Part shown: positions 29,177 to 49,739 of the stretch, piece after piece | How positions within the stretch are numbered: position 1 is the first letter of the stretch | Layout: every line of letters starts with the position of its first letter | Source of the DNA: Eubacteriales bacterium | GTDB taxonomy: Bacteria; Bacillota; Clostridia; Oscillospirales; SIG627 | DNA: 64,000 nucleotides | Assembly (NCBI GenBank): GCA_045541915.1 | Contig: JAZQJZ010000039.1 | Coordinates: 13,253 to 77,252 of the forward strand | Reading direction: 5' to 3' | Program-made: the position numbers and the translations under genes | The notes under the pieces: generated by a model | Seen by the model: the letters and a program-made list of their open reading frames with translations, nothing else | Databases searched by the model: none | What the model was told of the DNA's origin: nothing

Positions 29177-30703
29177 TTATCCGAAATACTTTTCCGTGGA
29201 GACCCGGTATCCCACCGCCTCCAGGATGTGCTCCTCTTTGATGATGGGGGCTTCCTCCAGGTCTGCAATGGTACGGGAAAGCCGCAGGATCCTGTCATAC
29301 CCTCTGGCAGAAAGGTTCAGTGCGGAAAAACTCTCCTTTAAAAGGGCCTCGGCGCCTGCATCCAGAACGCACATTTCCTTGGTCTGTGCGCCGTTTAAGG
29401 CTCCGTTGGCGGTAATGCCCCATTTTTTGTACCGTTCCCTTGCCATCTGGCGCGCCCGGTTCACCCGTTCTCTCACCCTTTCGCTGCTCTCAGCCTTTTC
29501 CTTGTTCCGAAGCTCCTCAAAGGAAAGGGCCGGCACTTCCACGCGCATATCGATCCGATCCAGAAGCGGCCCGGAAATTTTACTTAAATAGCGCTCCACT
29601 GCGCCTTTTTTACAGCTGCAGCTGTGATGGGTGTCTCCATAGTATCCGCAAGGGCAGGGGTTCATGGCGCAAACCAGAATGAAATCCGAGGGGAAGGTCA
29701 TTTTCCAGTTGGCGCGGGTAATGGTGACACTGCGATCCTCCAAGGGCTGACGCAAGGCCTCCAGGCTCCGTTTTTCAAATTCCGGCAGCTCATCCAAAAA
29801 CAAAACCCCGTTGTGCGCCAGGCTGATCTCACCCGGCTGGGGCGTTTGCCCACCGCCGGAAAGACCGGCAAAGCTGATGGTGTGATGGGGAGAGCGAAAG
29901 GGGCGCTGGGTGACCAGAGCCGCATCCGGCGGCAGGGTGCCGCTGATGGAGTGAATGGCAGTGGTGCGGAGCATCTGCTCAAAGGTCATTTGGGGAAGGA
30001 TCCCGGGAATGGCCTTGGAAAGCATACTTTTTCCACTGCCCGGAGGGCCCACCAAGAGAAGGTTATGATTTCCGGCGGCGGCGATCTCAATGGCTCTCTT
30101 TGCCACCTCCTGACCCTTGATATCCGCAAAATCCACAGGGCAAGGCGCGGAGAGCATGGCATCCTCCAGAGAAAAAGAGGTTTGTTCCAGAAGGGCCTGG
30201 CCTGTCAGGTGACAGACGATCTCTCCCACATTTTTGGCACCGTAAACACAAAGTCCCTCTACGGCGCTGCACTCCCGGGCATTCTCCCAAGGGACAAAAA
30301 GGCGCTTGGCTCCCGCATCCCGGGCGGCCAGGGCAAGGCAAAGGGCACCGGGCAGACCGCGTAGATCTCCTCCCAACCCCACCTCGCCGAAAAAGGCGGC
30401 GTCCTCCAGAGGGACATTTTTTAAAGCTGTGCCGCATAATAGTGAAATGAGAATGGGAAGATCAAAGCCGCTCCCTTGCTTCTTCCGGTCTGCCGGCGCA
30501 AGGTTGACGGTGACGCTTCCCCGGGGCAAAGGGAGCGCGGCGCTTTGGGCCGCTGCATAAATTCGGTTGACGGATTCCTTTACCGCCGTATCAGGCAGAC
30601 CGATGATGTCAAGCCCGGGAAGTCCCTTTCCGAACCAGGCCTCCACCACCACGGGAAAGCCCTCCAAACCCCAAAGGCCGGCAGAGGAAATCTTAACGAT
30701 CAC
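29177..30703 (-). CDS. comM: YifB/ComM-family Mg-chelatase-like AAA+ protein
   Basis: 508 aa. Lon-protease-like N-domain, Walker A GPPGSGKS, Walker B LFLDELPEF, zinc-ribbon-like CPCGYYGD..HSCSC, C-terminal ChlI-like domain. Confidence 0.9.
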   Translation of the reverse strand: MIVKISSAGLWGLEGFPVVVEAWFGKGLPGLDIIGLPDTAVKESVNRIYAAAQSAALPLPRGSVTVNLAPADRKKQGSGFDLPILISLLCGTALKNVPLEDAAFFGEVGLGGDLRGLPGALCLALAARDAGAKRLFVPWENARECSAVEGLCVYGAKNVGEIVCHLTGQALLEQTSFSLEDAMLSAPCPVDFADIKGQEVAKRAIEIAAAGNHNLLLVGPPGSGKSMLSKAIPGILPQMTFEQMLRTTAIHSISGTLPPDAALVTQRPFRSPHHTISFAGLSGGGQTPQPGEISLAHNGVLFLDELPEFEKRSLEALRQPLEDRSVTITRANWKMTFPSDFILVCAMNPCPCGYYGDTHHSCSCKKGAVERYLSKISGPLLDRIDMRVEVPALSFEELRNKEKAESSERVRERVNRARQMARERYKKWGITANGALNGAQTKEMCVLDAGAEALLKESFSALNLSARGYDRILRLSRTIADLEEAPIIKEEHILEAVGYRVSTEKYFG

Positions 30704-30908: not shown

Positions 30909-33900
30909 ATGGTCACAAGAAAGAAAATGTCCATGGATGGTAACACCGCTGCGGCGCACGTTTCCTATGCGTTCACCGAAGTGGCTGCCATCTACCCCAT
31001 CACTCCCTCCAGTGTTATGGCTGAATTGACCGACGCTTGGTCTGCCACAGGACTGAAGAACATCTTCGGCGAAGAAGTAAAAGTTACCGAAATGCAGTCT
31101 GAAGCAGGTGCTGCCGGTACCGTTCACGGCTCTCTTGCCGCCGGTGCTCTCACCACCACCTTCACCGCATCCCAGGGACTTCTTCTGATGATCCCCAATA
31201 TGTATAAGATCGCCGGCGAACTTCTTCCCGGTGTCATCCACTGCTCTGCACGCTGCGTTGCTTCTCACGCGCTGAACATCTTCGGCGATCACAGTGATAT
31301 CTACGCTTGCCGTCAGACCGGCTTTGCTCTTCTTGCCAACACCAATCCCCAGGAAGTTATGGACCTTGGCGCAGTGGCACACCTTCCCGCCATCAAGGGC
31401 AGAGTTCCTTTCCTAAACTTCTTTGACGGTTTCCGTACCTCTCACGAGATCCAGAAGATCTCCGTTTGGGAGTACAAGGAACTGGAAGAAATGATCGATA
31501 AGGACGCTCTGGCTGCCTTCCGCGCAAGAGCTCTCAATCCCGAGCATCCCGTTCTCCGCGGCTCCGCTGAAAACGGCGATATCTTCTTCCAACACAGAGA
31601 AGCCTGCAACCGTTACTATGACGAGCTTCCCGCCATCGTGGAAGAATATATGGATAAGGTCAATGCCAAGATCGGCACCAACTACAAGCTCTTCAACTAC
31701 TACGGTGCTCCCGATGCCGAAAAGGTTATCGTGGCAATGGGCTCCATCTGCGACGTAGCAGAAGAAGTTATTGATTATATGAACGCTCACGGCGAAAAGG
31801 TAGGTCTGGTAAAGGTTCGTCTGTACCGTCCCTTCCGCGCTGACAAGCTGATCGAAGCCATCCCTGCAACCGCGAAGAAGATTGCTGTTCTGGACCGCAC
31901 CAAGGAGCCCGGCTCTCTGGGCGAACCCTTGTACCTGGATGTGGTAACCGCTCTGGCTACCTCTGGCAAGAACGATGTGAAGATCGTAGGCGGTAGATAC
32001 GGCCTCGGTTCTAAGGATACTCCTCCCTCCAGCATTTTCGCAGTATACGAAAACCTGGATCAGGCAGAGCCCAAGAACGGCTTTACCATCGGTATTGTAG
32101 ACGATGTGACCGGTCTTTCTCTGGAAGAGAAGGCTGCTCCCGACACCGCTGCAGAAGGAACCATCTCCTGCAAGTTCTGGGGTCTGGGCGGCGACGGTAC
32201 CGTTGGTGCAAACAAGAACTCCATCAAGATCATCGGTGACCATACCGATAAGTTCATCCAGGCATACTTCCAGTATGACTCCAAGAAGACCGGTGGTGTG
32301 ACCATCTCCCACCTGCGCTTTGGCGACAAGGAGATCAAGTCCCCCTATTACATCACCAAGGCAAACTTTGTTGCTTGCCACAACTCCTCTTATATCCTCA
32401 AGGGCTATAAGATCGTTCAGGATGTGAAGCCTGGCGGCACCTTTATGCTGGACTGCCAGTGGAAGGCAGACGAGCTGGACGCTCACCTTCCCGCAGATGT
32501 AAAGGCTTACATCGCTCAGAATAACATCAAGTTCTACACCATTGATGCTACCACCATCGCTTCCAAACAGATCGGTAACCCCAAGGTAAAGAACACCGTT
32601 CTTCAGTCTGCATTCTTTGCTCTGGCTAACATTCTTCCTAAGGATGAGGCCATTGAATACATGAAGAAGATGGCTTACAAGTCCTACATCAAGAAGGGCG
32701 AGGCCATTGTGGAACTGAACTACAAGGCAATCGATGCCGGCGCCAACGCTATGGTTGAAGTTGCTGTTCCCGAAGCTTGGAAGAGCATTTCTGCCGGCGA
32801 AGAGAAGGCAAAGGCTACCGGTAAGAGAGCAGACCTTGTGAAGTTCGTCAATGAGATCGTGGAACCCGTTTCCCTGATGAATGGCGACTCTCTGCCCGTT
32901 TCCCGCTTTGCTGACTGCGCTGACGGTACCTTCCCCCAGGGCGCTGCCGCTTACGAGAAGAGAGGCGTTGCTGTTTCCGTTCCCGTATGGCACGCTGAGA
33001 ACTGCATCCAGTGTAACAACTGCTCCTTTGTATGTCCTCACGCCGCCATTCGTCCCTTCGCTCTGACCGCTGATGAGGCTGCCTCGGCTCCCGCAGAAAC
33101 CAAGTTCTGTGCAAAGCCCGTTCTGAAGACCGATTACAAGTTCACCATGGCGATTTCTCCTCTGGATTGTATGGGTTGTACCCTTTGTGTGAAGGCTTGT
33201 CCTGTTACCGCAAAGGCAGAAAAAGACGGCGCTCCCGAAAAGAAAGCCATCGAAATGGTACCCCAGGCAACTCAGCTGGATCAGCAGAAGCCCTTCGACT
33301 GGTGCGTTGAAAACGTAACCGAAAAGAAGGAACTGTTCAATGCTAAGACTGTAAAGGGCAGCCAGTTCAAGCAGCCTCTGCTTGAGTTCTCCGGTTCCTG
33401 TGCCGGTTGTGCTGAAACCTCTTATGCAAGACTGATCACCCAGCTGTTCGGTGAAAGAATGTACATCTCCAATGCAACCGGATGTTCCTCCATCTGGGGT
33501 GGCTCCGCTCCTGCAACTCCTTACACTGTCAACAATGCAACCGGTCGCGGTCCTGCTTGGGCAAACTCCCTCTTTGAGGATAACGCTGAGCACGGTCTGG
33601 GTATCCACCTGGGTCAGAAGACCATCCGCGAAAGACTGATCGGTTATGTTGAAAAGCTCCTGGAGACTGTGGAAGATGCCGATAAGAAGGCCATCGTTCA
33701 GGCTTACCTTGACACCAAGGACAACGGTGCTGAAAACGAAAAGGCAACCGACGCTCTGATTGCAATGCTGGAAGCTTGCGATTGCAAGAACGAATGGAAA
33801 GAAAAGATCCTTGCTGAAAAGGATTACCTGTCCAAGAAGTCCATCTGGATCTTCGGTGGCGACGGTTGGGCATACGACATCGGATTTGGCGGTCTGGATC

Positions 33901-34484
33901 ACGTTCTGGCCAGCGGCGAAGATGTAAACGTAATGGTATTCGATACTGAAGTTTACTCCAACACCGGCGGACAGGCTTCCAAGGCTTCCAACATCGGTCA
34001 GGTAGCTCAGTTTGCTGCAGCCGGTAAGGCCATCGGCAAGAAGAATCTGGCTGAGATCGCTATGAGCTATGGCTACGTTTACGTGGCTCAGGTGGCAATG
34101 GGCGCTGATATGAACCAGCTGCTCAAGGCTCTCACCGAAGCAGAAGCTTATCCCGGACCTTCTCTCATCATCGGCTATGCTCCCTGTGAAATGCACGGCA
34201 TTAAGGGCACCATGGCAAACTGCCAGGTGGAAATGAAGAAGGCTGTGGAATCTGGCTACTGGCAGATGTTCCGTTACAACCCCTTGGCAGAGAAGAAGCT
34301 CATCGTGGATTCCAAGGCTCCCACCGGTTCCTACCAAGACTTCATTAAGGGCGAGACCCGTTATGCAAGACTTGCTCAGCAGAACCCCGAAAGAGCTGCC
34401 GCTCTCTTCGATAAGGCTGAAGCTGCTGCTGCAGAGAGATACCAGAAGCTTACCAAGCTGGAAAAACTCTACGGCGAAGAATAA
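30909..34484 (+). CDS. nifJ: pyruvate:ferredoxin (flavodoxin) oxidoreductase
   Basis: 1191 aa. DGNTAAAHVSYAFTEVAAIYPITPSS, two 4Fe-4S motifs (CIQCNNCSFVCPH and CMGCTLCVKACP), TPP motif GGDGWAYDIG. Confidence 0.95.
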   Translation: MVTRKKMSMDGNTAAAHVSYAFTEVAAIYPITPSSVMAELTDAWSATGLKNIFGEEVKVTEMQSEAGAAGTVHGSLAAGALTTTFTASQGLLLMIPNMYKIAGELLPGVIHCSARCVASHALNIFGDHSDIYACRQTGFALLANTNPQEVMDLGAVAHLPAIKGRVPFLNFFDGFRTSHEIQKISVWEYKELEEMIDKDALAAFRARALNPEHPVLRGSAENGDIFFQHREACNRYYDELPAIVEEYMDKVNAKIGTNYKLFNYYGAPDAEKVIVAMGSICDVAEEVIDYMNAHGEKVGLVKVRLYRPFRADKLIEAIPATAKKIAVLDRTKEPGSLGEPLYLDVVTALATSGKNDVKIVGGRYGLGSKDTPPSSIFAVYENLDQAEPKNGFTIGIVDDVTGLSLEEKAAPDTAAEGTISCKFWGLGGDGTVGANKNSIKIIGDHTDKFIQAYFQYDSKKTGGVTISHLRFGDKEIKSPYYITKANFVACHNSSYILKGYKIVQDVKPGGTFMLDCQWKADELDAHLPADVKAYIAQNNIKFYTIDATTIASKQIGNPKVKNTVLQSAFFALANILPKDEAIEYMKKMAYKSYIKKGEAIVELNYKAIDAGANAMVEVAVPEAWKSISAGEEKAKATGKRADLVKFVNEIVEPVSLMNGDSLPVSRFADCADGTFPQGAAAYEKRGVAVSVPVWHAENCIQCNNCSFVCPHAAIRPFALTADEAASAPAETKFCAKPVLKTDYKFTMAISPLDCMGCTLCVKACPVTAKAEKDGAPEKKAIEMVPQATQLDQQKPFDWCVENVTEKKELFNAKTVKGSQFKQPLLEFSGSCAGCAETSYARLITQLFGERMYISNATGCSSIWGGSAPATPYTVNNATGRGPAWANSLFEDNAEHGLGIHLGQKTIRERLIGYVEKLLETVEDADKKAIVQAYLDTKDNGAENEKATDALIAMLEACDCKNEWKEKILAEKDYLSKKSIWIFGGDGWAYDIGFGGLDHVLASGEDVNVMVFDTEVYSNTGGQASKASNIGQVAQFAAAGKAIGKKNLAEIAMSYGYVYVAQVAMGADMNQLLKALTEAEAYPGPSLIIGYAPCEMHGIKGTMANCQVEMKKAVESGYWQMFRYNPLAEKKLIVDSKAPTGSYQDFIKGETRYARLAQQNPERAAALFDKAEAAAAERYQKLTKLEKLYGEE

Positions 34485-34494
34485 GAACCAAAAC

Positions 34495-34527
34495 AAAAAG
34501 GAACTGCATTTTGCAGTTCCTTTTTTT
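34495..34527 (+). terminator. rho-independent terminator after nifJ
   Basis: aaaaaggaactgca-ttt-tgcagttcc followed by seven T. Confidence 0.85.
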
Positions 34528-34590
34528 GTATCCGGAAACCCCCGCGCCAGTGGCGCGATTTGGGAAAGGGGCTCCGGCAAGAAGAAAAAG

Positions 34591-34741
34591 AGAAGGCGAT
34601 TGGGTAAAGGCCAGAATTTTGGCGAAGATCCGACGGGAGGCAGGTTGCCTCCCCTACAGGGTTTGGGGAAACCGAAGTATTGTTCTTTTTCTACGGGCTG
34701 TCGAGGACGTCAGCCCCTACAGAGTTTGGGGAAATCGGGAT
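34591..34741 (+). repeat. 151-bp direct repeat, copy A (two hairpin+CCCCTACAGrGTTTGGGGAAA subunits)
   Basis: Aligns base-for-base with 35144-35294 with a handful of substitutions. Contains hairpins gggaggcaggttgcctccc and gggctg-N10-cagccc. Confidence 0.85.
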
Positions 34742-34801
34742 TTTTAGTGAGAGAGGCGGACAATGTAACAATCGGGTTTTTGGTACAATATCGTGGCACA
34801 T

Positions 34802-35060
34802 TTGCCTTCCCCAGTGGGGGAAGGGGACCACGAAGTGGTGGATGAGGTATGCGAAACGCCAAAACAATATTTCTTCACATAAATTCGTTCGGCGATATCG
34901 TAGGGGAGGCAATCTGCCTCCCGTTCTGCGGCAAACCACAAAACATTCTTTTTCAAATATTCCGTTCTGGCATTGTAGGGGCCGACGTCCCCGACGGCCC
35001 GCCCTGGGGCAAAAAAACCAAAATTTCTGCCAAAACCCCGTTTGGGATTTCATAGGTGCT
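34802..35060 (-). repeat. REP-like palindromic units in opposite orientation
   Basis: Contains gtaggggaggcaatctgcctccc and gtaggggccgacgtccccgacggccc, which are reverse-orientation versions of the hairpin+CCCCTAC units. Also ccttccccagtgggggaagg...ggatgaggt, the reverse of the unit at 35098-35143. Confidence 0.6.
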
Positions 35061-35143
35061 GATTCCAAAGAAGGAGAAAACAAAAACCGGGAATTTTTTG
35101 ACACCTCATCCGTCAGCCTGCACCTGCCACCCTCTCCCGCTGG

Positions 35144-35294
35144 AGAAGGCGATTGGACAAAGGTCAGAATTTTGGCGAAGATCCGACGGGAGGCAGGTTG
35201 CCTCCCCTACAGGGGTTGGGGAAACTGAAGTATTGTTCTTTTTCTACGGGCTGTCGAGGACGTCAGCCCCTACAGGGTTTGGGGAAATCGGGAT
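35144..35294 (+). repeat. 151-bp direct repeat, copy B
   Basis: See copy A. Ends 5 nt before the left palindrome of the XRE/SLOG cassette. Confidence 0.85.
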
Positions 35295-35298
35295 ATAG

Positions 35299-35337
35299 TT
35301 TTGCGCAAAAAAAGACCGGAAAAACCGGTCTTTTTTT
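35299..35337. terminator. terminator-like palindrome, left bracket of cassette 1
   Basis: ttttgcgc-aaaaaaa-gaccgg-aaaaa-ccggtc-ttttttt. Abuts the XRE stop codon at 35338-35340. Confidence 0.8.
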
Positions 35338-35679
35338 CTAATTTCCTTTGAATTGATCCATTTCCTTGAGGATTCTCATGATTCGCTCTTGATCCTCCTG
35401 GCTTTTGGCCAATAAAAACTCATAGCATTCAAGAGGCAAATTTGGCTGGGAATCACACTTTTCTCCACCAAGGTTTTCAAGTAGCTTGGAAAGAGAAACG
35501 TTTAACGAAGAAGCAATTTTTTCGATACTTTCCAAGGTGGCGTTCTTTTCTCCGCGCTCCAATTGACCGATATAGGTTGGGTGACAACCGGCAAGCTCGG
35601 CCAACTTTTCTTGACTAAAACCCAGTTTTGTTCTGTAATTTCGGATCCGTTGCCCTACAATTTTTGCTAAATCTTTCAC
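35338..35679 (-). CDS. XRE-family HTH transcriptional regulator with a ~45-aa C-terminal extension
   Basis: 113 aa. HTH_3 pattern GFSQEKLAELAGCHPTYIGQLERGEKNATL. GTG start 5 nt after a GAGGTG RBS. Confidence 0.85.
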   Translation of the reverse strand: MKDLAKIVGQRIRNYRTKLGFSQEKLAELAGCHPTYIGQLERGEKNATLESIEKIASSLNVSLSKLLENLGGEKCDSQPNLPLECYEFLLAKSQEDQERIMRILKEMDQFKGN

Positions 35680-35734
35680 AAAATCACCTCTATATTAGAG
35701 TCTATAAATATTAGCGGGAATATTCCACAGACTA

Positions 35735-35763
35735 TTGATATTGATAATTTAGAGGTATATACT
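35735..35763 (+). promoter_or_regulatory. promoter candidate for the SLOG gene of cassette 1
   Basis: TTGATA (35735-35740), 17-nt spacer, TATACT (35758-35763). The -10 overlaps the left arm of an 11-bp inverted repeat (35761-35771 / 35789-35799). Confidence 0.4.
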
Positions 35764-35814
35764 ATAAGCACCGGCGCTTTGTTTTTTTGTGCTTATAGTG
35801 TTTGAGGTGAAACA

Positions 35815-36294
35815 ATGGATCCAAAGTATACTTGTTGTGTTTTTGGTCACAGAAACATAGAGAAAAGTGAATCGTTAAGGGCGAGACTTTATTGCGTTAT
35901 GGAAGAACTGATACGGAAAGAACGGGTTGAGACTTTCCTGTTTGGGAGCAAAAGCGCTTTCAACGATCTTTGCCATGCCGTCGCAACAGAGTTGAAGGAG
36001 AAGTATCCACACCTTAAACGAATTTATGTGCGAGCGGAATATCCTCATATTAGTGAGCAGTATCAGGATTATCTTTTAGGACTTTATGAGGATACTTATT
36101 ATCCGGAAAAGATCTTGGCCTCGGGAAAAGCAGTTTACATTGAGCGCAACTATGAAATGATTCATCAAAGCCGGTTTTGCATTGTTTATTATGATGAAAA
36201 AAAGACAGCGGTCGAAGGAAAAAGCGGAACGAAAATCGCCCTCGAATACGCTATAAAAAACGGAAAACGTTTGATCTTATTGCCTTCTCTCTAA
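35815..36294 (+). CDS. DUF1273/YpsA-like SLOG-fold protein
   Basis: 159 aa. N-terminal CCVFGHRN (family pattern C.FTGHR), TFLFGSKSAF loop, C-terminal KSGTKIALEYAIKNGKRLILL (family pattern GGT...YA...GK.I.N). GAGGTG RBS. Confidence 0.6.
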   Translation: MDPKYTCCVFGHRNIEKSESLRARLYCVMEELIRKERVETFLFGSKSAFNDLCHAVATELKEKYPHLKRIYVRAEYPHISEQYQDYLLGLYEDTYYPEKILASGKAVYIERNYEMIHQSRFCIVYYDEKKTAVEGKSGTKIALEYAIKNGKRLILLPSL

Positions 36295-36296
36295 CC

Positions 36297-36336
36297 TTTT
36301 TGCGCAAAAAAAAGACCGGTTTTTCCGGTCTTTTTT
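36297..36336. terminator. terminator-like palindrome, right bracket of cassette 1 (loop inverted relative to the left copy)
   Basis: ttttgcgc-aaaaaaaa-gaccgg-ttttt-ccggtc-tttttt. Same flank and arms as 35299-35337, but the loop is ttttt instead of aaaaa. Confidence 0.8.
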
Positions 36337-36368
36337 GTTTCTATCATATGGAAGAGGGGAATGGCCCT

Positions 36369-37658
36369 TTACCAGCGGCATACGCCCAGGCCGTTTTCCA
36401 TCTGGATGGAAACGCCGTAAGGCGCGCTCATTTTGGCCAGGTCCTCCATAAAGGCAAGATCCTTTGCCGGCTGGGGCAGACCCTCCAGGTGCTTGCCCTC
36501 GCCCTTGCTTGCCTTAACGGGCATCAGAACCAGCTTGGTCAGCTTTTTGTTTTCGTCGGTTTCCCAGTAGGGGATCACCGTTTCCAGCATCCTGGGATCC
36601 TCCATCAAGCCGCGGGTAAAGCCGGCGGAGCGCTTCTCCAGAAGAGAGATGGGGGAGGAATTGGAATCCATACCGTATTTTTTGTAAAAATCCTCGGGTG
36701 CAACGGGAACCTGATACAGCTGAATGATAAAATCGCCCAGAGAATAGAAAATGGGCTTTTCCTGATATACTTCAATGGCGCGAAGCAGATGAGGACCGTG
36801 ACCCACCACCGCGTCAGCACCGGCATCGATCAGGGTGTGGCAAATGTCCTTGAGCACCTGGGGAACGGTGGTCTTATCGCTTCCCACGATCTGGTGAGCG
36901 TGAAGGGAGATCATCACGTAATCGGCGCAAAGGGAGGCTTCCCGGATGGAAGCGATGACCCGGTCCATATCTTCCTTGCTGGGGGTTGAGATCAGGTCGA
37001 AGCGGTCGCCCTTGACAAAATTCAAGGTACCGATTTCTGCCGTTCCCTCCGGCAAAAAGGGATAATAACCCTCCCGACGGGTAATGTTTTTCGGCTCGTT
37101 GATCTGGGTCTTTTCGCCGATTTCCTGCACAGTCTTGAAGGCTTCCTCGGGAACCATCAGCTTTTGGGAAATATTGATTCCGTTGATACCGGGTCTGCCG
37201 GGAATACGACGGGACATTTCGCCGGCCATCATAGCCGGAGCAAAGGAGGTGTTGATGCAAATCAGCGCTACCCGGCCGTTTTTTGTTTCCAGGTAAGCCG
37301 GCGCGGCGGCCTGGTGCAGATTCATACCCACACCGCTGTGTACCACGCCGGTACGGGACACGTATTCAATGGTTTTTTCCATACCCAGATGGTCAAAGTC
37401 CATGGCGTGGTTGTTATTGAAGGTGGTGGTGTTAAAGCCGAATTTCAGCATATCCTCCATCACTTCGGGGGTGCATCTGACGTAAGTTCCGCCGGAATGC
37501 TGGCAAGCGTAGCACTCGCCCTCATAATTGACGGTGGTTTCCAGGTTGAAAAAGCGGCAGTCACCTTGATCCAGAAAGGCCTTGATGGGAGCAAAGCCCT
37601 CGTAATCTTCGGGAAGTCTTCTTTGACAGAGAACGTCACCTACGGCTGTAAATTTCAT
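36369..37658 (-). CDS. CapA/PGA-cap family metallophosphatase-like protein
   Basis: 429 aa. GD....NLE....NNH..D.G..G pattern (AVGDVL...FFNLET...FNNNHAMDFDHLG) typical of the CapA family. Confidence 0.7.
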   Translation of the reverse strand: MKFTAVGDVLCQRRLPEDYEGFAPIKAFLDQGDCRFFNLETTVNYEGECYACQHSGGTYVRCTPEVMEDMLKFGFNTTTFNNNHAMDFDHLGMEKTIEYVSRTGVVHSGVGMNLHQAAAPAYLETKNGRVALICINTSFAPAMMAGEMSRRIPGRPGINGINISQKLMVPEEAFKTVQEIGEKTQINEPKNITRREGYYPFLPEGTAEIGTLNFVKGDRFDLISTPSKEDMDRVIASIREASLCADYVMISLHAHQIVGSDKTTVPQVLKDICHTLIDAGADAVVGHGPHLLRAIEVYQEKPIFYSLGDFIIQLYQVPVAPEDFYKKYGMDSNSSPISLLEKRSAGFTRGLMEDPRMLETVIPYWETDENKKLTKLVLMPVKASKGEGKHLEGLPQPAKDLAFMEDLAKMSAPYGVSIQMENGLGVCRW

Positions 37659-37868
37659 TGTTCATTTTCCTTTACTTTTTTAAATGTTATTTGCTTTTTG
37701 CCTTTTCAGTTTACTCTTTATGCCACCTGATGTCAAGTAAAAAAAGGTTCTTTCTACGAAAAACAAGGGAGAATTTCCAGAAAAATATTGTGAAGAAAAA
37801 AGGATTGTGATACAATAAAAGAAAGAGATTGTCAGGGGAGGAGTTCCCTTTCCCCTTGAGGAGAAAAC

Positions 37869-38816
37869 ATGAAGATCACGGTATTTGAATGGGAAACGGT
37901 TTGCGGAAGCGATCTGGATCCCGGCGGCTTAGAAAAGCTTGGTCAGGTGCGCTTTTTCGGCACGCCAAAGCCGGAGGAGGTAGTCTCCCTTGTTGGCGAC
38001 AGCCAGGCGGTTTTGTGCAGTAAGGTTCGCTTTACTGCGGAGGTGATGGATGCCTGCCCCAATCTTTCTTATATTGGCCTTATGGCAACCGGGTATAATA
38101 ATATTGACATTGCCGCCGCCCGGGAGCGGGGAATCCTGGTGACCAACATTCCCGATTATTCTGCCGATGCTGTCTGCCAGATGACCATGGCTTATATTTT
38201 GCAGTTTGCCACCAATCTCATTCGGTATGACGCCGCCACCAAACGGGGCGACTGGACACGATCCCCCTTCTTTTGCTATTATCCCTATCCCATGATCGAG
38301 CTTTCCGGCAAAACCCTTGGCCTTTTGGGCCTTGGCTCCATTGGAAGCCGCGTAGCAAAGGCGGCGGAAGCCTTTGGAATGAAAGTTCTTTATCACACCC
38401 GGAGAAAACGGGACGTTCCCTATGAATATGTTTCCCTGGAGGAGCTGTTTTCCCGGAGTGACTTTCTCTCCCTTCACTGCCCCTTGACCGAGCAAACAAG
38501 TGGAATCATCAACAAAGAGGCTCTTTCCAAAATGAAGAAAAATGCCTATTTGATCAACACGGCCCGCGGCCCTCTGGTGAAGGAAGAGGATCTGGCAAGG
38601 GCGCTGAAGGAGGAACGGATCGCCGGATTTGCCGGAGACGTTCTGGTAAACGAGCCCCAGCGGGAGGACTGCCCCCTTTTGGGCCTAGAAAACTGTATTC
38701 TCACTCCCCACATTGCCTGGGCACCCAAGGAGACCAGAGAGCGCCTTTGGGGAATTCTTCTTTCCAATTTAGAGGCATTCTTATCCGGCGAGCCGAAGAA
38801 TGTGGTGGAAGGGTAA
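37869..38816 (+). CDS. D-isomer-specific 2-hydroxyacid dehydrogenase (glycerate dehydrogenase-like)
   Basis: 315 aa. NAD motif GLLGLGSIGSRVA and catalytic-region pattern NTARG...TPHIAWA. Confidence 0.85.
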   Translation: MKITVFEWETVCGSDLDPGGLEKLGQVRFFGTPKPEEVVSLVGDSQAVLCSKVRFTAEVMDACPNLSYIGLMATGYNNIDIAAARERGILVTNIPDYSADAVCQMTMAYILQFATNLIRYDAATKRGDWTRSPFFCYYPYPMIELSGKTLGLLGLGSIGSRVAKAAEAFGMKVLYHTRRKRDVPYEYVSLEELFSRSDFLSLHCPLTEQTSGIINKEALSKMKKNAYLINTARGPLVKEEDLARALKEERIAGFAGDVLVNEPQREDCPLLGLENCILTPHIAWAPKETRERLWGILLSNLEAFLSGEPKNVVEG

Positions 38817-38882
38817 AAAGTTCAAATTGAGGAAATGATTTTCCTTTTATATAAAACCAATATCAAAAAGGAGATGGATGCT

Positions 38883-39677
38883 ATGAATGCAAAATCAAAA
38901 AAACCCGGTATTGTGATCGCCATTGTCTTGATCTGTCTTGCGGCGCTGTTTGTCCTTGCCAATTGCTTTACCATTGTAGAAGCCGGCCATACGGGCGTGG
39001 TTCTTACCTTGGGTAGGGTGAATGAGGCCGTTCTGTCCGAGGGCTTTCACTTGAAAATTCCCTTTGCCCAGGAAGTGGTGCAGATCGACAACCGTATTTC
39101 CAAATTGGAAGTGAATACTGAGGCCTTTTCCAAGGACCTGCAGACCGTTTCCACCACCCTTGCCATCAACTATCGCGTGGATTCTGCCAAGAGCAGTGAG
39201 CTTTATCAAAACATCGGAAGAAATTATGAAACCGTTTTGGTGGTACCGGCGGTGAACGAGGTATTGAAGGCCATCACCGCCCGGTACACTGCCGAGGAGA
39301 GCGTAACCAACCGCGTGATCATTTCCGACGGGCTCATTTCCGGCTTGAATGAAAAACTCAACGAGGAAGGGCTTTATGTGAACGATGTGAACATTATGAA
39401 CTTCGACTTTTCCGAAGCGTTCATTACGGCCATTGAAGAAAAACAGGTGGCCCAGCAGCAGCTTTTAAAGGCCGAGACGGAAAAGCAAACTGCCATTACC
39501 AATGCCGAGGCAGAGGCAGAGACCATTCGCATCAAGGCTCAGGCTGAGGCGGAGGCCAACCGCATTGTCAGCGAATCCTTAAATGAGATCATCATTGAAA
39601 ACAAGAAGATCGAAAAGTGGAACGGTCAGCTTCCTCAGGTAATGGGGGATGCAGATCCGCTGATTGCCATTGAATAA
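38883..39677 (+). CDS. SPFH/prohibitin-family membrane protein
   Basis: ATG 38883, 8 nt after AAGGAG. N-terminal TM helix, SPFH core, Ala/Glu-rich coiled-coil tail. Confidence 0.8.
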   Translation: MNAKSKKPGIVIAIVLICLAALFVLANCFTIVEAGHTGVVLTLGRVNEAVLSEGFHLKIPFAQEVVQIDNRISKLEVNTEAFSKDLQTVSTTLAINYRVDSAKSSELYQNIGRNYETVLVVPAVNEVLKAITARYTAEESVTNRVIISDGLISGLNEKLNEEGLYVNDVNIMNFDFSEAFITAIEEKQVAQQQLLKAETEKQTAITNAEAEAETIRIKAQAEAEANRIVSESLNEIIIENKKIEKWNGQLPQVMGDADPLIAIE

Positions 39678-43480: not shown

Positions 43481-44650
43481 ATGGAAAAGGTACGTTACGG
43501 CATCATCGGCCTTGGAAACCAGGGCAGCACCTACAATTTGAAGATTTTTGACAGAGACAAGGTGGAAAACGGAGTGGTCACCGCCCTTTGCGATAACGAT
43601 CCGGAAAAGATCCGCATCATGAAGGAAAAGACCCAAAACCAATCCATCACCTATTTTGAAGACTATAAGGAAATGCTCGACTCCGGCCTTTGCGATGCGG
43701 TTTTAATTGAAACGCCCCATTACATTCACCCGGAAATCTCGATGGAGTGCTTCAAGCGCGGTATTCATGTGCTCTGCGAAAAGCCGGCAGGCGTTTATGC
43801 CGACCAGGTACGGGAAATGAACGAAGCAGCCGAAAAGACCAATTCCCTTTTCGGTATGATGTTCAATCAGAGAACCAATTGCAACTATCGGAAAATGAGA
43901 GAAATGGTCCTGGGCGGTGAAATCGGAGAAATTCAGAGAATCACCTGGATCATCACCGACTGGTTCCGCACTCAGACCTATTACGATTTAGGTCAGTGGA
44001 GAGCCACCTGGTCCGGAGAGGGCGGCGGCGTTCTCATCAACCAGGCTCCTCACCAGCTGGATCTGGTGCAGTGGATCATCGGTCAAAGCCCCAAATCGGT
44101 CAACGGCTTCTGCAAGTACGGACACTGGCACGATGTAGAGGTGGAGGACGAGGTTACCGCATATCTGGAATATGAAAACGGCGCCACCGGTGTGTTCATC
44201 ACCACCACCGGCGAAGCACCCGGCACCAACCGCCTGGAAATTTCCGGCACCAAGGGAAAGCTTCTCTGCGAAGGGAAGAATTTGATGTTCTATCGCAATG
44301 CCCAGGATAGCCGGGAGTACTCCAAAACCTCCCCGGAAGCCCATAAAAAGCCTGATGTGGAAGTGATCGAAGTGGAGACCGACGGCAAGAATCCCAAGCA
44401 CGCCGGCATTATCAATAACTTTACCAATGCCATTCTGGGCAAGGAAGAGCTCTTTGTGGATGGCAGAGAGGGAATCCGCGGCGTGGAGCTGATGAACGCC
44501 ATCGAATATTCCGGCTGGATGGGCGGCATCAAGGTCACCCTTCCCGTGGACGGCAAACAGTACCTGGAGGAATTGAACCGCCGCAGAGCCACCTCCCGTG
44601 TGAAGGAAAAGGTGGAGGCCAAGGTTCTGGATACCTCCAACAGCTATTAA
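43481..44650 (+). CDS. Gfo/Idh/MocA-family oxidoreductase
   Basis: 389 aa. Rossmann YGIIGLGNQG and the EKP motif in VLCEKPAG. Confidence 0.85.
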   Translation: MEKVRYGIIGLGNQGSTYNLKIFDRDKVENGVVTALCDNDPEKIRIMKEKTQNQSITYFEDYKEMLDSGLCDAVLIETPHYIHPEISMECFKRGIHVLCEKPAGVYADQVREMNEAAEKTNSLFGMMFNQRTNCNYRKMREMVLGGEIGEIQRITWIITDWFRTQTYYDLGQWRATWSGEGGGVLINQAPHQLDLVQWIIGQSPKSVNGFCKYGHWHDVEVEDEVTAYLEYENGATGVFITTTGEAPGTNRLEISGTKGKLLCEGKNLMFYRNAQDSREYSKTSPEAHKKPDVEVIEVETDGKNPKHAGIINNFTNAILGKEELFVDGREGIRGVELMNAIEYSGWMGGIKVTLPVDGKQYLEELNRRRATSRVKEKVEAKVLDTSNSY

Positions 44651-44653
44651 AAT

Positions 44654-44687
44654 AAAAAGATGTGTGGAAAATCCACACATCTTTTTT
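44654..44687. terminator. terminator-like palindrome, left bracket of cassette 2
   Basis: aaaaagatgtgtggaaaatccacacatctttttt. Identical 34-mer recurs at 45452-45485. The SLOG stop codon overlaps its T-run. Confidence 0.85.
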
Positions 44688-45138
44688 ATATTTTCTCCAG
44701 TGGAAAGCTTCCCAAGTTGATAATTTTAATGTTTTTCTTTTTTGCTTTTTCAATATAAGTGTAGGTGTTGGAAATAGGATTTTCTAAAAAGCAAACAATA
44801 AAATCAACGCGGTTCAGCATAAAATGGTTTCGTTTGGAGATTGCAAAGCGTTTTGGCGTTTTTGAAATGCAGTCGGGAAAAATGGTTTTTTGGAGGTCAT
44901 AATAAATGGAATTCTTTTTTTGATTTAAATAGGCTAACACCACCTTGATTTCAATGCTGTGTTTTTCTTCAAGGGAGCATAAAACTTCATAAGCAGTTTT
45001 GTCAAATCTTCCGTGAGTACCTACGAAAAAAGTATGAACATTTTCATTGATAATCAAATTTTCAATCACTGAAAATAAGGCTTTTCTCAAATCATCTGGA
45101 CAATTTCTATGTCCGAAAAAAGCACACGCCGCCATCAT
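44686..45138 (-). CDS. DUF1273/YpsA-like SLOG-fold protein, diverged paralogue of 35815-36294
   Basis: 150 aa. MMAACAFFGHRN, HTFFVGTHGRFD loop, C-terminal NTYTYIEKAKKKNIKIINL. GAGGTG RBS sits 2 nt upstream of the first ATG (45138-45136), so the second ATG (45135-45133) is the more plausible start. Very AT-rich. Confidence 0.55.
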   Translation of the reverse strand: MMAACAFFGHRNCPDDLRKALFSVIENLIINENVHTFFVGTHGRFDKTAYEVLCSLEEKHSIEIKVVLAYLNQKKNSIYYDLQKTIFPDCISKTPKRFAISKRNHFMLNRVDFIVCFLENPISNTYTYIEKAKKKNIKIINLGSFPLEKI

Positions 45139-45235
45139 ATCACCTCTTTTATTCCATCCATTTTAAGGGAATTCCCCTTAAAAGTCAATAAGGCATCATC
45201 CCTTAAGGCATAATTTATTAGAAGGGGTGATAAGG

Positions 45236-45448
45236 ATGTTTCATAGAATTCGCGATTTGCGCGAGGACCGGGATCTGACGCAAACACAATTGGCCCGGTA
45301 TTTGCAAATTCATCAAACAACTTATTCCGATTATGAAATTGGGAATTTGAATGTTCCCGTGGACATTCTCATCAAATTGGCAAAGTTTTATGATACCAGC
45401 GTTGATTATCTTGTGGAATTGACAAACGAAGCCAAGCCATATCGATAA
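45236..45448 (+). CDS. minimal XRE-family HTH protein
   Basis: 70 aa from ATG 45236, after a GAAGGGG RBS. HTH_3 pattern LTQTQLARYLQIHQTTYSDYEIGNLNVPVDILIKLAKFY. Confidence 0.8.
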   Translation: MFHRIRDLREDRDLTQTQLARYLQIHQTTYSDYEIGNLNVPVDILIKLAKFYDTSVDYLVELTNEAKPYR

Positions 45449-45451
45449 AAC

Positions 45452-45485
45452 AAAAAGATGTGTGGAAAATCCACACATCTTTTTT
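45452..45485. terminator. terminator-like palindrome, right bracket of cassette 2
   Basis: Identical to 44654-44687. Lies between the XRE stop (45448) and the convergent gene's stop (45496). Confidence 0.85.
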
Positions 45486-45495
45486 TTGCTTTGGT

Positions 45496-47415
45496 TTATT
45501 TTTCCCCTTCGGGAACGAATCTTCTGAGGGTTCTTCTGTAAACGGCCTGGAATACCACCGGGTCGAATACTTCCTGGATGCCATCTTCCATTTCGTACAT
45601 TGCGTCCTTCAAAATGGTTTTCTTTTCCAGTCTTTCCTCTTCGTTGTCCTTGCCGCACAAATAAGACATTTGAGCATCGGCAAACTTCTTGGTCAGCTCT
45701 GCGTGATAAACCAGAAGCTTCCAGGAGGGATTGGTATCGCCCTTTGTGGCCAGGTGCTCGCGGGAGAAGGCGTCCACCCATTCCTTTGCTTCGGTCAGTC
45801 TCTTTTCCACACCCTCGGGATCCAGTTCCTTTTCCTTGCGTACGTAGGGCGGATCAAAGAGAACGGAAAGACGGGACAGATATTTCTCTACGACCTTGGC
45901 ATCTTCTCCGAATGCGGCGGTAAAGTACTCGTCGCAAATATCGGAAAACTGGCTCTTCTTATCCCAAAGGCCCTTGGCCATAGCATAGAAGGGAAGGCCG
46001 GTGGGAAGGAAAGTGCGCTGCAGCTGGCAGCTCATCATACCGTTCAGGCCGATCTTATCCAGGTTGACCATATCCTTGTGGAGAATACGGGCACATTCAT
46101 AGTAACCGGGATCCAGGTGATGGTCCCACATCAGGTGATAGTCAAAGTCAAAGCTATCGGAATTGATCTGCTCGTTCTGCCAACGTTCCAGTCTTGCCAG
46201 GTTGTCTTCCACAGCTTTGGGCATTTTCAGCTGGTTTCTCACATAGGGAGTAAGCTCCACCTTCTTGTTGGGATCCACATCGGAGAAGGCGTTGGTGTAG
46301 GTACGGGTGATGGGGGCAAACATCAGAACAAAGCGATCGGGATTCTTGATCTTTTCCTGTTCGGGAGCCCAGAGCAGGTCTACATAGATCAGACAAACGA
46401 TCTTGGTATCCACGCCGGCAGCAGTGAGCTTTTCGTCCAATTCATTGAGCATGGTCACGTAAAAGTCTGCCGGGGTCTTCTTTTGACATTCGGGACATTC
46501 GCAGTGGTTGTTCTTGCCGTCTGCCAGCCAAAAGTGAAGGAAGTTCACATCGCTGTGCTTCTGGCAGTATTCCACAATGCCGCTTGTCATCTTATCTCTC
46601 ACCACGGGGTTGGAGTAGCAAAGGTTGGTATTCAGGGCAACGTCTCTCCAAAGGGCGCGCTTGCCGTCGATCTCTGCCAGGTACTGAACCGCATCGGCAG
46701 GAACCTGGGAGGGATCCATTTTGGTCCAGCCGCTGGCGGGAATGCCAAAGGGATCGCAGGTCCAACCGTGACCGGTGGCGTGATAATCAAGGCCGCGAAG
46801 GACGATCTCCTCCTCCAGACCCTTCCACATATGAGCCACATCCTGGTCGGTCACCGGGGTCAGACCCTTTTTGCTGTAGGGATCGTTATAAAAACGGGTG
46901 AAGAAAATGGTGGGAATGTGGAACTGCATAAAATAGCCGTTCATTCCGACCTTGGGCAGATAATCGATCATATTGCGCACGTGCTCATAGGAAACGGCAC
47001 CTTCAATGCAAACACCGCGGTGGCGGTAGGAAGCCTTTTCCTGAACCGAGGCGCAAAGATCCTCTTTCTTCAATTTTTTCTGGGGAATTTCCTCTCCCTC
47101 TGCGCCGGGGCGCAGGAAGCGGCAGCCCAATTCAAACAGGAAGCGGTATGCACCGATGAGAACGGCTCTTTCGCTGGAACCGGTGATGATGCCGGCGCCG
47201 TTTTGGATCTCAATGCGAATCTCGTCCAGGCCGCTCTTCTCCACCGATCCGTCCAGACCCAACCAAAGAATGCGTTCAAGCTTCGGGTCAATTTCGTCAT
47301 AAATACGGGTATCCACAAACAGGGTGGGGTCCATTTTCTTTAGGATACGGGTCAATTCCTGAGCCGCGTACCCAAGGGTTTTGTTGGTGCCGATTCTGCC
47401 AAGGGTAATGTTCAT
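45496..47415 (-). CDS. DUF4838-like (GH20-related fold) protein, putative glycan-degrading enzyme
   Basis: About 639 aa from ATG 47415, after AAAGGAGAG. Cys cluster HCECPECQKK and overall layout resemble DUF4838 proteins as I remember them. Assignment is tentative. Confidence 0.45.
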   Translation of the reverse strand: MNITLGRIGTNKTLGYAAQELTRILKKMDPTLFVDTRIYDEIDPKLERILWLGLDGSVEKSGLDEIRIEIQNGAGIITGSSERAVLIGAYRFLFELGCRFLRPGAEGEEIPQKKLKKEDLCASVQEKASYRHRGVCIEGAVSYEHVRNMIDYLPKVGMNGYFMQFHIPTIFFTRFYNDPYSKKGLTPVTDQDVAHMWKGLEEEIVLRGLDYHATGHGWTCDPFGIPASGWTKMDPSQVPADAVQYLAEIDGKRALWRDVALNTNLCYSNPVVRDKMTSGIVEYCQKHSDVNFLHFWLADGKNNHCECPECQKKTPADFYVTMLNELDEKLTAAGVDTKIVCLIYVDLLWAPEQEKIKNPDRFVLMFAPITRTYTNAFSDVDPNKKVELTPYVRNQLKMPKAVEDNLARLERWQNEQINSDSFDFDYHLMWDHHLDPGYYECARILHKDMVNLDKIGLNGMMSCQLQRTFLPTGLPFYAMAKGLWDKKSQFSDICDEYFTAAFGEDAKVVEKYLSRLSVLFDPPYVRKEKELDPEGVEKRLTEAKEWVDAFSREHLATKGDTNPSWKLLVYHAELTKKFADAQMSYLCGKDNEEERLEKKTILKDAMYEMEDGIQEVFDPVVFQAVYRRTLRRFVPEGEK

Positions 47416-49670: not shown

Positions 49671-49739
49671 ACTTCTCCCACACTCCTTTTTTCATCCTTA
49701 TATAGGGATCATAGCCCAAAAAAGGCCCTTTTATGCAAG

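Follow-up and report, generated by a model that had tools for sequence, protein, structure and literature searches.

The window analysed here, a stretch of 64,000 nucleotides whose sequence comes entirely from one metagenome-assembled contig, carries two gene cassettes that are each bracketed by a pair of hairpins. In cassette 1, the hairpins are separated by 959 bp that are delimited by a stop codon at each end. XRE1 (35338-35679, minus strand) encodes a 113-aa Cro/C1-type HTH regulator (Pfam HTH_3, E 4.5e-16) that also matches PADLOC control-protein and CapH-like HTH models, and SLOG1 (35815-36294, plus strand) encodes a 159-aa YpsA/DUF1273-like SLOG protein. The two genes are separated by a predicted divergent promoter/operator region (35680-35814) with a promoter-like site at 35735-35763 on the plus strand. 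As a sequence-only reading of this DNA had claimed, the two direct-repeat copies bracket a discrete two-gene unit without a recombinase, consisting of the HTH regulator and the SLOG protein only. To the left, nifJ has its own terminator (34495-34525), so the left hairpin copy is dispensable for nifJ termination, and a REP-like repeat array (34590-35294) occupies the space between that terminator and the left copy. To the right, a CapA-family host gene (36369-37658, minus strand; Pfam PGA_cap, E 1.4e-49) points its 3' end toward the right hairpin, 32 nt away.

The SLOG1 match to Pfam PF06908 (E 4.5e-6, 27.2 bits) lies slightly below the 27.7 cut-off. A total of 4519 SLOG1 homologues were recovered, the best at 66% identity, and homologues carry precomputed PF06908 hits. 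The top Foldseek hits of the SLOG1 AlphaFold model (pLDDT 83.8) were ShosA 8zva and YpsA 2nx2 (TM 0.65); a sequence-profile search found no PDB chain for the SLOG protein. By family profile, homologues and modelled fold, the cassette cargo protein is assigned to the YpsA/DUF1273 family of the SLOG superfamily as a predicted member.

The left hairpin copy (35299-35337) consists of the flank TTTTGCGC followed by A7, GACCGG, AAAAA, CCGGTC and T7, and the right copy (36297-36336) of the flank TTTTTGCGC followed by A8, GACCGG, TTTTT, CCGGTC and T6; both sequences agreed base for base with their first description on re-reading, and their stems start exactly 1000 bp apart. The left copy folds with -16.6 kcal/mol on the plus strand and -17.7 kcal/mol on the minus strand, where it is the predicted XRE1 terminator, its T run being abutted by the XRE1 stop codon (35338-35340). 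The right copy would serve as terminator for both SLOG1 (plus strand) and CapA (minus strand). The 30-nt block that includes the loop, 35308-35337, is the reverse complement of 36307-36336 at 30/30 positions, and besides this inverted block the copies differ solely by one additional T in the flank (TTTTT GCGC in the right copy). The reverse-complemented loop reported earlier was therefore seen again, within a perfect inverted block, and one 30-nt inversion explains both the loop flip and the change from A7/T7 to A8/T6. The longest direct exact match between the copies is TTTTGCGCAAAAAAA, 15 nt. The flank had also been called non-palindromic, which did not hold, as it sits in the small palindrome TTTTGCGCAAAA; its direct orientation did hold, the flank lying on the left side of both hairpins, and the direct-repeat reading stands on that account. 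The repeats of cassette 1 exist and are direct. In cassette 1, the inverted match (30/30) equals the direct match in length, and terminal inverted repeats are compatible with the sequence.

The second cassette (44688-45445) lies 9 kb from cassette 1 and is another XRE-SLOG unit, unrelated to the first. SLOG2 (44686-45138, minus strand) encodes a 150-aa YpsA-like protein (Pfam PF06908, E 1.8e-5, just under the gathering score) that is 27% identical to SLOG1 (BLASTP E 6e-13). Divergent from it, XRE2 (45236-45448, plus strand) encodes a 70-aa HTH regulator (Pfam HTH_3, E 4.7e-15) that is also matched by NCBIfam and PADLOC HTH models. The left hairpin (44648-44687; TAAAAT, A5, GATGTGTGGA, AAA, TCCACACATC, T6) starts at the stop codon of a host oxidoreductase gene (43481-44650), and the right hairpin (45446-45487; TAAAAC, A5, GATGTGTGGA, AAA, TCCACACATC, T8), with its loop unflipped, is followed by 8 nt and the stop codon of a convergent host gene (45496-47451). 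The copies share a 32-nt exact direct match inside a 47-nt alignment at 91%, and their sequence differs from that of the cassette 1 hairpins. The site thus lies between two convergent host genes, with 3 nt of host spacer left outside the hairpins on one side and about 8 nt on the other. This leftover spacer fits a single terminator of about 47 nt that the two host genes would have shared before the insertion, with no space for a lost host terminator. At each of the four cassette ends, a stop codon is found at a distance of 0-3 nt.

Both hairpin pairs form predicted strong stem-loops followed by U tracts on all four strands, with energies between -15.7 and -21.9 kcal/mol and z-scores between -4.4 and -8.0. 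Each strand has a run of 6-8 T, and the hairpins have the features of predicted bidirectional intrinsic (Rho-independent) terminators. They resemble the window's other host terminators in style, and an Rfam scan of 34400-36500 gave no match above threshold. With a free loop and up to 3 mismatches allowed, the core GACCGG pattern occurred at two sites only in 64 kb, with 0 expected by chance in the window (100 dinucleotide-preserving shuffles). The sequence-only reading had argued against chance from the stem, stating that every other terminator in the window had a different one. Two further pairs do share a stem, one identical (44654-44686 and 45452-45484, the hairpins of cassette 2) and one with the same stem (49739-49768 and 57985-58018). 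The argument itself fails: among the matches listed, a metagenome scan for the hairpin gave generic look-alikes only, with A6-GACCGG-N5-CCGGTC-T6 present in over 120 metagenome contigs that are unrelated to one another, as well as in 2 viral contigs, with other loops and flanks. The GACCGG stem is generic, so its uniqueness carries no evidential weight. The flank TTTTGCGC was present at 0/122 other GACCGG hairpins among the matches listed, and no viral contig was found to carry the cassette 1 flank together with an arm. A contig with a similar stem twice, also 798 bp apart (L204), was set aside as a phage repeat without similarity to the window.

The GC content was 39.5% in cassette 1 and 35.5% in cassette 2, compared with 51.1 ± 3.3% in the window, and the two cassettes are its two lowest-GC stretches (960-bp stretches). 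Over positions 5-934 of 959, cassette 1 matches a module of an unrelated genome of about 38% GC (L048) at 74% DNA identity, with no homology beyond; the promoter/operator region aligns inside this continuous match, and the XRE proteins are identical at 82 of 113 residues. The region around the L048 module encodes a serine recombinase and a Mob protein. Composition and homology thus identify the cassette 1 unit as foreign, and it is a conserved module that runs from stop codon to stop codon. No recombinase or transposase was found among the window ORFs (12-63 kb), and no mobility gene lies nearby. Searches of cassette DNA and SLOG2 against phage and plasmid sequences returned weak partial matches only, and a viral scan found no SLOG relatives. 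The divergent XRE-SLOG pair was found in seven further contexts, with unrelated terminators at the two ends of homologous modules. None of the seven showed a flanking duplication, so bracketing is not a general property of the XRE-SLOG module. In L242, an XRE-SLOG module that carries its own terminators lies inside a split host terminator palindrome, which suggests that terminators are recurrent entry points for the module.

An empty site was not found for either window locus. The window species had one occurrence in the protein collection, and exact-protein look-ups (SLOG1, CapA and the 100% database match) returned no indexed contig. For site 1, the best CapA match in GTDB genomes was 77% identical; CapA identity in the closest relatives was at most 78%, and none had nifJ beside CapA. 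In the closest relatives the CapA block is inverted, and a peptidase gene is usually next after CapA. The nifJ/CapA junction is a lineage-specific rearrangement, which makes the history of site 1 more complex than a simple insertion. For site 2, relatives located through the DUF4838 neighbour (65-68% identity) were not syntenic. Natural insertions do duplicate entire hairpins, as shown by the sequences of two gut-metagenome contigs: L108 has one hairpin, and L070 has identical flanks with a hairpin, a 211-bp element and a hairpin. This repeat element, whose left end is CAGCGTGTCGATAAACCC, also lies between two copies of another hairpin in L090, and it uses palindromic intergenic hairpins as insertion sites in L070, L090, L161 and L117. 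No copy of the L070 element was found in the window. A natural loop flip was seen between L155 and L163, in a sequence family with the GACCGG stem. Template switching is documented as a mutational process that inverts the loop or spacer of a palindrome (PMC8794818, PMC8604942). The earlier suggestion that the loop was flipped by an event within the palindrome is supported by these two sources and by the L155/L163 pair.

On balance, we favor, at somewhat better than even chances, that both cassettes arose by insertion at a pre-existing bidirectional terminator with a long target duplication, the loop flip being secondary. Insertion with duplication of the whole hairpin had already been proposed by the sequence-only reading; the proposal loses the stem-uniqueness argument and retains the direct repeats, the foreign unit, the second bracketed cassette and the comparison of L108 with L070. 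Two unrelated XRE-SLOG pairs would have been gained from low-GC Clostridia, each entering the host at an existing bidirectional intrinsic terminator, and we infer one ancestral hairpin at each of the two window sites. The insertion would have copied the whole palindrome with its A/T tracts and a few flanking bases, amounting to 38-40 nt in cassette 1 and 34-40 nt in cassette 2. With the terminator duplicated, the host and incoming transcription units would all end in a working (predicted) terminator. In the preferred mechanism, the DNA would break or switch strands within the two symmetric A/T tracts where the palindrome has its feet, for example while it is extruded or folded, and fill-in or re-copying would then leave a complete hairpin on either side of the insert. 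A separate event would have flipped the cassette 1 loop: template switching from one arm to the other would have inverted 30 nt within the palindrome, whether in the course of that repair synthesis or afterwards. The flip is probably functionally meaningless because the cassette 2 copies share one loop. The cruciform or A/T-tract model alone does not account for the duplication of TTTTGCGC, a flank of 8-9 nt that lies beyond the main palindrome.

An unlikely alternative is that the hairpins are part of the cassette, each divergent gene carrying the same terminator as a 30-bp perfect terminal inverted repeat, and that the unit arrived complete and replaced or adjoined a host terminator. Both cassette 1 genes do read one RNA hairpin (A run, GACCGG, UUUUU, CCGGUC, U run), the inverted match is 30/30, and the L242 module has terminators of its own. 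The 9-nt flank TTTTGCGCA, however, lies on the same side of both cassette 1 copies and is direct, the cassette 2 copies are direct with identical loops, site 2 has no space for a separate host terminator, and homologous modules have unrelated terminators at their two ends. A hairpin located 3' of a SLOG gene in L193 agrees with the cassette 2 stem at 10 of 11 stem positions, and this stem was found nowhere else in the 1.87 Mb of DNA fetched, a hint that the hairpin may move together with the cargo and a point against the favored reading. Since SLOG2 and the L193 protein share no more than 29% identity, descent of a near-identical noncoding hairpin is implausible, and the stem shared by L193 and cassette 2 occurs at chance frequency in viral contigs. 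A hairpin traveling with SLOG genes was rejected on these two grounds, and the look-alike in L193 is probably a coincidence.

A circular cassette, joined to the chromosome by site- or structure-specific recombination at a hairpin acting as an attC- or Xer/dif-like attachment site, would also leave direct repeats if a recombinase encoded elsewhere in the genome joined the cassette and chromosomal copies. The direct repeats around a promoter-containing, recombinase-less cassette agree with this scheme, as does the location of the homologous L048 module near a serine recombinase and a Mob protein; in addition, near-palindromic dif-type sites are oriented by their spacer alone and would resemble a flipped loop. 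We nevertheless regard it as quite improbable. The hairpins of the two cassettes are unrelated and so provide no common recognition sequence, they are perfect A/T-flanked terminators of 31-33 nt with spacers of 5 and 3 nt and without attC boxes, extrahelical bases or dif-like arms, no integrase was found among the window ORFs (12-63 kb), and a cassette would already need its own copy of every target that it enters. The chance that the pattern is an artefact or coincidence, produced by independent look-alike terminators or by metagenome misassembly, appears very small. The source is a single MAG contig, the GACCGG stem is found in the more than 120 unrelated contigs among the matches listed and the ATGTGTGG stem in 46 viral contigs. 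These observations are countered by the 0/122 count for the TTTTGCGC flank among the matches listed, by the 0 matches expected by chance in the window and by the recurrence of the pattern at a second, independent cassette with the same kinds of genes. Repeats of 38-47 nt are also shorter than the usual final assembly k-mers, and arms of 13 nt would be too short to make the loop orientation ambiguous in the assembly graph.

Under insertion with target duplication, the data point to the hairpin itself as setting the size of the duplication. This would explain why such insertions are tolerated, each neighboring gene keeping a terminator. How small defence- or addiction-type gene pairs spread without a transposase is poorly understood, and terminator-duplicating insertion would be a rarely described route of gene gain; no description of this bracketing pattern was found in the literature on terminator duplication. 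The flipped loop of cassette 1 offers a clean natural case of intrapalindrome inversion between paralogous copies. More speculatively, and improbably as a whole, bidirectional terminator palindromes in gut Clostridia may be specific entry sites, defined by structure, for recombinase-less DNA, a cut at the feet of the folded or extruded palindrome duplicating the hairpin (cassettes 1 and 2, L070 and L090) and a cut at the tip splitting it (L242), which would be exploited by XRE-SLOG modules, perhaps via the DprA-related SLOG protein, and by the 211-bp elements. If true, this would amount to a class of terminator-targeting mobility that is new.

Among known systems, integron cassettes are likewise short gene cassettes set apart by imperfect palindromes, with the recombinase not inside the cassette; the window cassettes differ in having their own promoters and two divergent genes. 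An attC site is 57-141 nt long, with R and L boxes and extrahelical bases, and works with the IntI integrase of the array. The window palindromes are perfect, 31-33 nt long and free of bulges or boxes (the consensus was judged by eye), and with no integrase found among the ORFs at 12-63 kb this candidate was rejected. A pdif site is 28 bp long and has a 6-bp spacer between two Xer-binding arms of 11 bp. Xer/dif was also rejected, the window spacers being 5 and 3 nt and the arms, an A run with GACCGG or GATGTGTGGA, being unlike the dif consensus; IS200/IS605-type subterminal hairpins were ruled out by structure and by the absence of the enzyme. In CRISPR spacer acquisition and casposon integration, a segment of about 30 nt that is partly palindromic is attacked at its two ends in a staggered manner, and fill-in after the insertion duplicates it. 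The outcome is alike by analogy only, as the window cassettes have no Cas1, casposase or leader and the insert is kilobase-sized and carries genes.

MITEs and insertion sequences prefer extragenic palindromes or terminators as targets (e.g. PMC1525189). Unlike these, the window cassettes lack terminal inverted repeats of their own, and the whole hairpin is duplicated rather than a fixed 2-10 bp. No inverted repeats were found between the inner ends of either cassette, the hairpins aside, and a DDE transposon or MITE was rejected on this ground together with duplications of 34-40 nt and unequal length. Template-switch (quasipalindrome) mutations (PMC8794818; PMC8604942) are similar to the cassette 1 flip in that the loop is reverse-complemented, the stem is kept and two arms suffice. 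The window case differs in that the inversion spans 30 nt with asymmetric ends in the A and T runs and lies between paralogous copies, not orthologues.

The closest comparison for the insertions is insertion with long target duplication (Nobusato et al. 2000; Furuta, Abe and Kobayashi 2010), in which a variable duplication of more than 30 bp, often spanning stop codons, accompanies units without mobility genes (PMC2853133). The window cassettes share with it a compact unit, the lack of a mobility gene, conflict-type cargo, deviating GC content and direct repeats of more than 30 bp and variable length, which correspond there to a single target copy; repeats often span a stop codon, and the neighboring genes stay intact. 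The repeats measure 39 and 40 nt in cassette 1 (the central 30 nt inverted) and 32 nt exact in cassette 2. The differences are that the window cargo is XRE plus SLOG and not restriction-modification, that the host is gut Clostridia-like, that the target is exactly a bidirectional terminator palindrome and that one copy is centre-inverted; the known class is defined by comparison with the empty site, whereas we infer the ancestral state in the window. Since 2000 this class has been known for restriction-modification genes only, without a mechanism. New here are two XRE-SLOG cassettes in one genome in which the duplicated unit is exactly the terminator palindrome, and an unrelated small element that does likewise, with an empty site for comparison.

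Cassette 1, a divergent unit of an XRE regulator gene and a SLOG gene, was bracketed by two copies of a terminator-like hairpin, TTTTGCGC-A7-GACCGG-AAAAA-CCGGTC-T7 on the left (35299-35337) and TTTTTGCGC-A8-GACCGG-TTTTT-CCGGTC-T6 on the right (36297-36336). The window sequence agreed exactly with the sequence-only reading, which had described both brackets and the reversed loop, and the duplicated hairpin around cassette 1 is real. The stem starts were separated by 1000 bp. When the loop was left free and up to 3 mismatches were allowed, the GACCGG core was detected at only two sites in 64 kb, both of them brackets of cassette 1, and none was expected from shuffles. A repeat finder yielded a perfect 30-nt reverse complement between 35308-35337 and 36307-36336 and a 15-nt exact direct match, TTTTGCGCAAAAAAA, on the left side of both copies, indicating that the two copies differ by an inversion of the central 30 nt and by one extra T in the flank of the right copy; a single 30-nt inversion accounts for both the loop flip and the replacement of A7/T7 by A8/T6. 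The flank had been called non-palindromic, which was incorrect: TTTTGCGCAAAA is a small palindrome by itself. It stood on the same side of each hairpin, and the copies are therefore direct repeats, as had been proposed. Every strand of the hairpins folded into a strong stem-loop followed by a U tract.

The 959-bp interior of cassette 1 (35338-36296) ran from stop codon to stop codon. It contained two divergent genes separated by a promoter region of 135 nt: XRE1 on the minus strand, an HTH regulator of the XRE type (113 aa; Pfam HTH_3, E 4.5e-16), and SLOG1 on the plus strand (159 aa), whose YpsA SLOG family match was slightly below the Pfam cut-off. This content, a regulator and a SLOG protein, bore out the earlier statement that the cassette carries no recombinase. 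XRE1 was similar to control proteins and to CapH of defence systems, and the SLOG1 structure model (pLDDT 83.8) best matched ShosA and B. subtilis YpsA, followed by ThsA SLOG domains; the closest of 4519 SLOG1 homologues, its own record excluded, was 66% identical. The GC content was 39.5%, compared to 51.1 ± 3.3% for the window. The whole unit showed 74% DNA identity to a module in a metagenome contig of ~38% GC (L048), with no similarity outside the unit. The L048 module was at the margin of a region holding a serine recombinase and a Mob protein, where a terminator palindrome, AAAAAAGATATGAGAGA...TCTCTCATATCTTTTTT, was also present twice in inverted orientation (116-178 and 1991-2032) around a 1.8-kb gene block, with half-copies at 754-773 and 3081-3100.

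Scanning the window for perfect hairpins detected a second pair around cassette 2, consisting of identical copies of AAAAAGATGTGTGGAAAATCCACACATCTTTTT at 44654-44686 and 45452-45484, which enclosed SLOG2 (44686-45138, minus strand, 150 aa) and the 70-aa regulator XRE2 (45236-45448, plus strand). SLOG2 was only 27% identical to SLOG1, so cassette 2 represents a separate acquisition; its GC content of 35.5% was the lowest of any stretch in the window. The repeats were direct, the loop was unchanged between copies, and the exact match was 32 nt inside a 47-nt alignment (91%). Cassette 2 with both hairpins spanned 44648-45487 between convergent host genes: the left copy began at the stop codon of an oxidoreductase gene (43481-44650, plus strand), and the right copy ended 8 nt short of the stop of a DUF4838 gene (45496-47451, minus strand). 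Taking out the cassette and one copy left an ordinary ~47-nt spacer with one shared bidirectional terminator. All four ends of the two cassettes were 0-3 nt from a stop codon.

The GACCGG stem is not distinctive. A6-GACCGG-N5-CCGGTC-T6 was present in at least 120 unrelated metagenome contigs and 2 viral contigs; among the matches listed, loops and flanks were highly diverse and none had the TTTTGCGC flank. Chance identity had been considered unlikely because every other terminator in the window was said to have a different stem; the core does occur only twice in the window, but the stem is common in unrelated contigs. Common descent of the two copies is evident from the flank and not from the stem. 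The cassette 2 stem occurred at chance frequency in viral contigs. One viral contig (L204) contained a hairpin, GATGTGTGG...CCACACATC, twice with common flanks (5533-5557 and 6331-6355); its 798-bp spacing, equal to that of cassette 2, is a coincidence, and the contig had no similarity to the window. A third same-stem pair in the window, AAAAAAGCACTC/GAGTGCTTTTTT (49739-49768 and 57985-58018), displayed unlike loops (GAAA, ATTT) and unlike flanks, with 8.2 kb between copies and surroundings of ordinary GC containing glycosyltransferase, transporter, and phosphofructokinase genes; the estimated chance of such a match was ~0.03 among ~16 hairpins.

Same-stem hairpin pairs no more than 6 kb apart were also sought in all the DNA under study, the window included (2.26 Mb with 549 perfect hairpins). 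Beyond the two window cassettes, the scan yielded contigs L070 and L090, both carrying one ~210-bp MITE-like element with terminal inverted repeats (CCTGTCATTsCGArCCAG) and a local terminator copy on each side, with a GACCGG-type stem in L070 but another stem in L090. The regions concerned were L070 9391-9662, L090 4044-4313, L161 797-1010, and L117 5932-6103, and the element's insertion sites were terminator hairpins of GC-rich gut-metagenome genomes. L108 and L070 represent one locus, matching over ~80 nt per side with two differences, both on the left; L108 (7065-7094) had a single hairpin and no element. L161 is the same locus too, with the element on the opposite side of the hairpin and the homopolymer run alone duplicated. 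The whole hairpin was duplicated in L070 and L090, whereas only an A or T run was duplicated in L161 and L117. The empty L108 and the filled L070 demonstrate that an entire hairpin can be duplicated when DNA inserts at a bidirectional terminator that lies between convergent genes. The two copies differed in the loop in both L070 and L090, which identifies the loop as the unstable part of the hairpin.

The loop flip belongs to a documented class of mutation, in which template switching between the arms inverts the loop or spacer of a hairpin (PMC8794818, PMC8604942). A natural flip on the GACCGG stem was found between L155 (ACTTG) and L163 (CAAGT), whose loops are exact reverse complements. They belong to a family, GCCCGAGGCACG + A6GACCGG-N5-CCGGTCT6 + CATGCCTAA, with members in L078, L084, L104, L106, L128, L138, L146, L155, L163, and L169. 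Loops and left flanks varied in this family; the left flanks in L138 and L169 resembled the 3' end of a tRNA, suggesting that an integrative element ends there. No function is evident for the flip, since the cassette 2 loops are identical.

A divergent regulator-SLOG pair was found in seven further contexts. None of the seven had a flanking duplication, and six had neither a duplicated nor a split palindrome. In L242 (1056-2101), the module with its own two terminators lay between the halves of a split host palindrome with 16-nt arms (AAAAGAGCTGATTTAT ... ATAAATCAGCTCTTTT), each half directly adjoining the stop of one of two convergent host genes (ComM-like; DUF4358). The module looks as if it had been inserted in the loop of a bidirectional terminator, and the splitting of a host palindrome by the module suggests that terminator palindromes are its repeated entry points. 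The ComM-like Mg-chelatase gene adjoining the L242 pair has a window homologue at 29177-30703, 5 kb from cassette 1. Among L176-L191, pairs immediately followed spoVA genes in two lineages, represented by L176 and L186. L193 (1658-3005) contained a decayed XRE-SLOG module, its SLOG gene reduced to 23 codons and a C-terminal remnant, 5' of an Arc-SLOG module; both SLOG genes were followed by related hairpins, the second of which, AAAAAAGGTGTGTGGAAAAAATCCACACACCTTTT, shares 10 of 11 stem positions with the cassette 2 hairpin.

No cassette-free version of either window locus was found among the sequences searched. The source species had a single representative in the protein collection, and exact look-ups of SLOG1 and CapA returned no indexed contig. 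The nearest CapA proteins were at most 78% identical, and nifJ was not adjacent to CapA in their genomes. The CapA/2-hydroxyacid dehydrogenase/SPFH block was inverted relative to nifJ (window 30909-39677 vs L002 and L006); the nifJ/CapA junction is thus a lineage-specific rearrangement. In L002-L005 and L007-L009, CapA was directly followed by an M20-type peptidase gene that is absent at the window locus, which, together with the inversion, places cassette 1 at the breakpoint. The DUF4838 gene neighbourhood differed in relatives (65-68% identity). REP-like repeats were present within the junction. A 152-nt direct repeat, 96% identical, occupied 34590-34741 and 35143-35294, with an inverted partial copy in the intervening 401 bp; 34590-35294 consisted of REP-like hairpins (GGGAGGCAnnnTGCCTCCC; CGGGCTGTCGAGGACGTCAGCCC) absent elsewhere in the window. 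Hairpins resembling these, GTAGGGGAGGG...CCCTCCCCTAC, adjoined the XRE-SLOG module in L176-L178.

The insertion and duplication originally proposed is the best available interpretation: on balance, the cassettes probably entered at a pre-existing bidirectional terminator, and we infer that its hairpin was duplicated in the process. It is unlikely that the cassette itself brought the hairpins in as inverted terminators at its ends, and at cassette 2 this would leave a host spacer of just ~11 nt. A circular cassette recombined by an enzyme supplied in trans is more doubtful still, and an artefact or coincidence is highly improbable. Every repeat boundary lay in an A or T run, so two routes to insertion with hairpin duplication are both compatible with the data. 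Nicks might be made in the two symmetric A/T runs at the base of the palindrome, once it is folded or extruded, and then filled in; otherwise, a replicative template switch might exit the template past the hairpin and re-enter upstream through A/T microhomology, which would also explain the duplicated TTTTGCGC flank and the loop inversion within the same synthesis.

The interest lies in the recurrence of whole-terminator duplication, at two separate XRE-SLOG cassettes and at a small element, unrelated to them, for which an empty site served as control, rather than in the loop flip or the stem, which is ordinary. The window cassettes lacked the defining features of integron attC, Xer/dif, MITE or IS, and IS200/IS605-type systems. 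Among described phenomena, "insertion with long target duplication" comes closest. There, restriction-modification units that carry no mobility genes lie between direct repeats of >30 bp, and the empty site has one copy of the repeated sequence; stop codons are often included in these repeats, and double-strand breakage has been suggested as the cause (PMC2853133). The window cassettes resemble it in having no mobility genes and in their long direct repeats, which are unique within the window, but they differ in their XRE and SLOG cargo, in their host group, in the duplicated unit, which is a terminator palindrome, and in the inverted centre of one copy.
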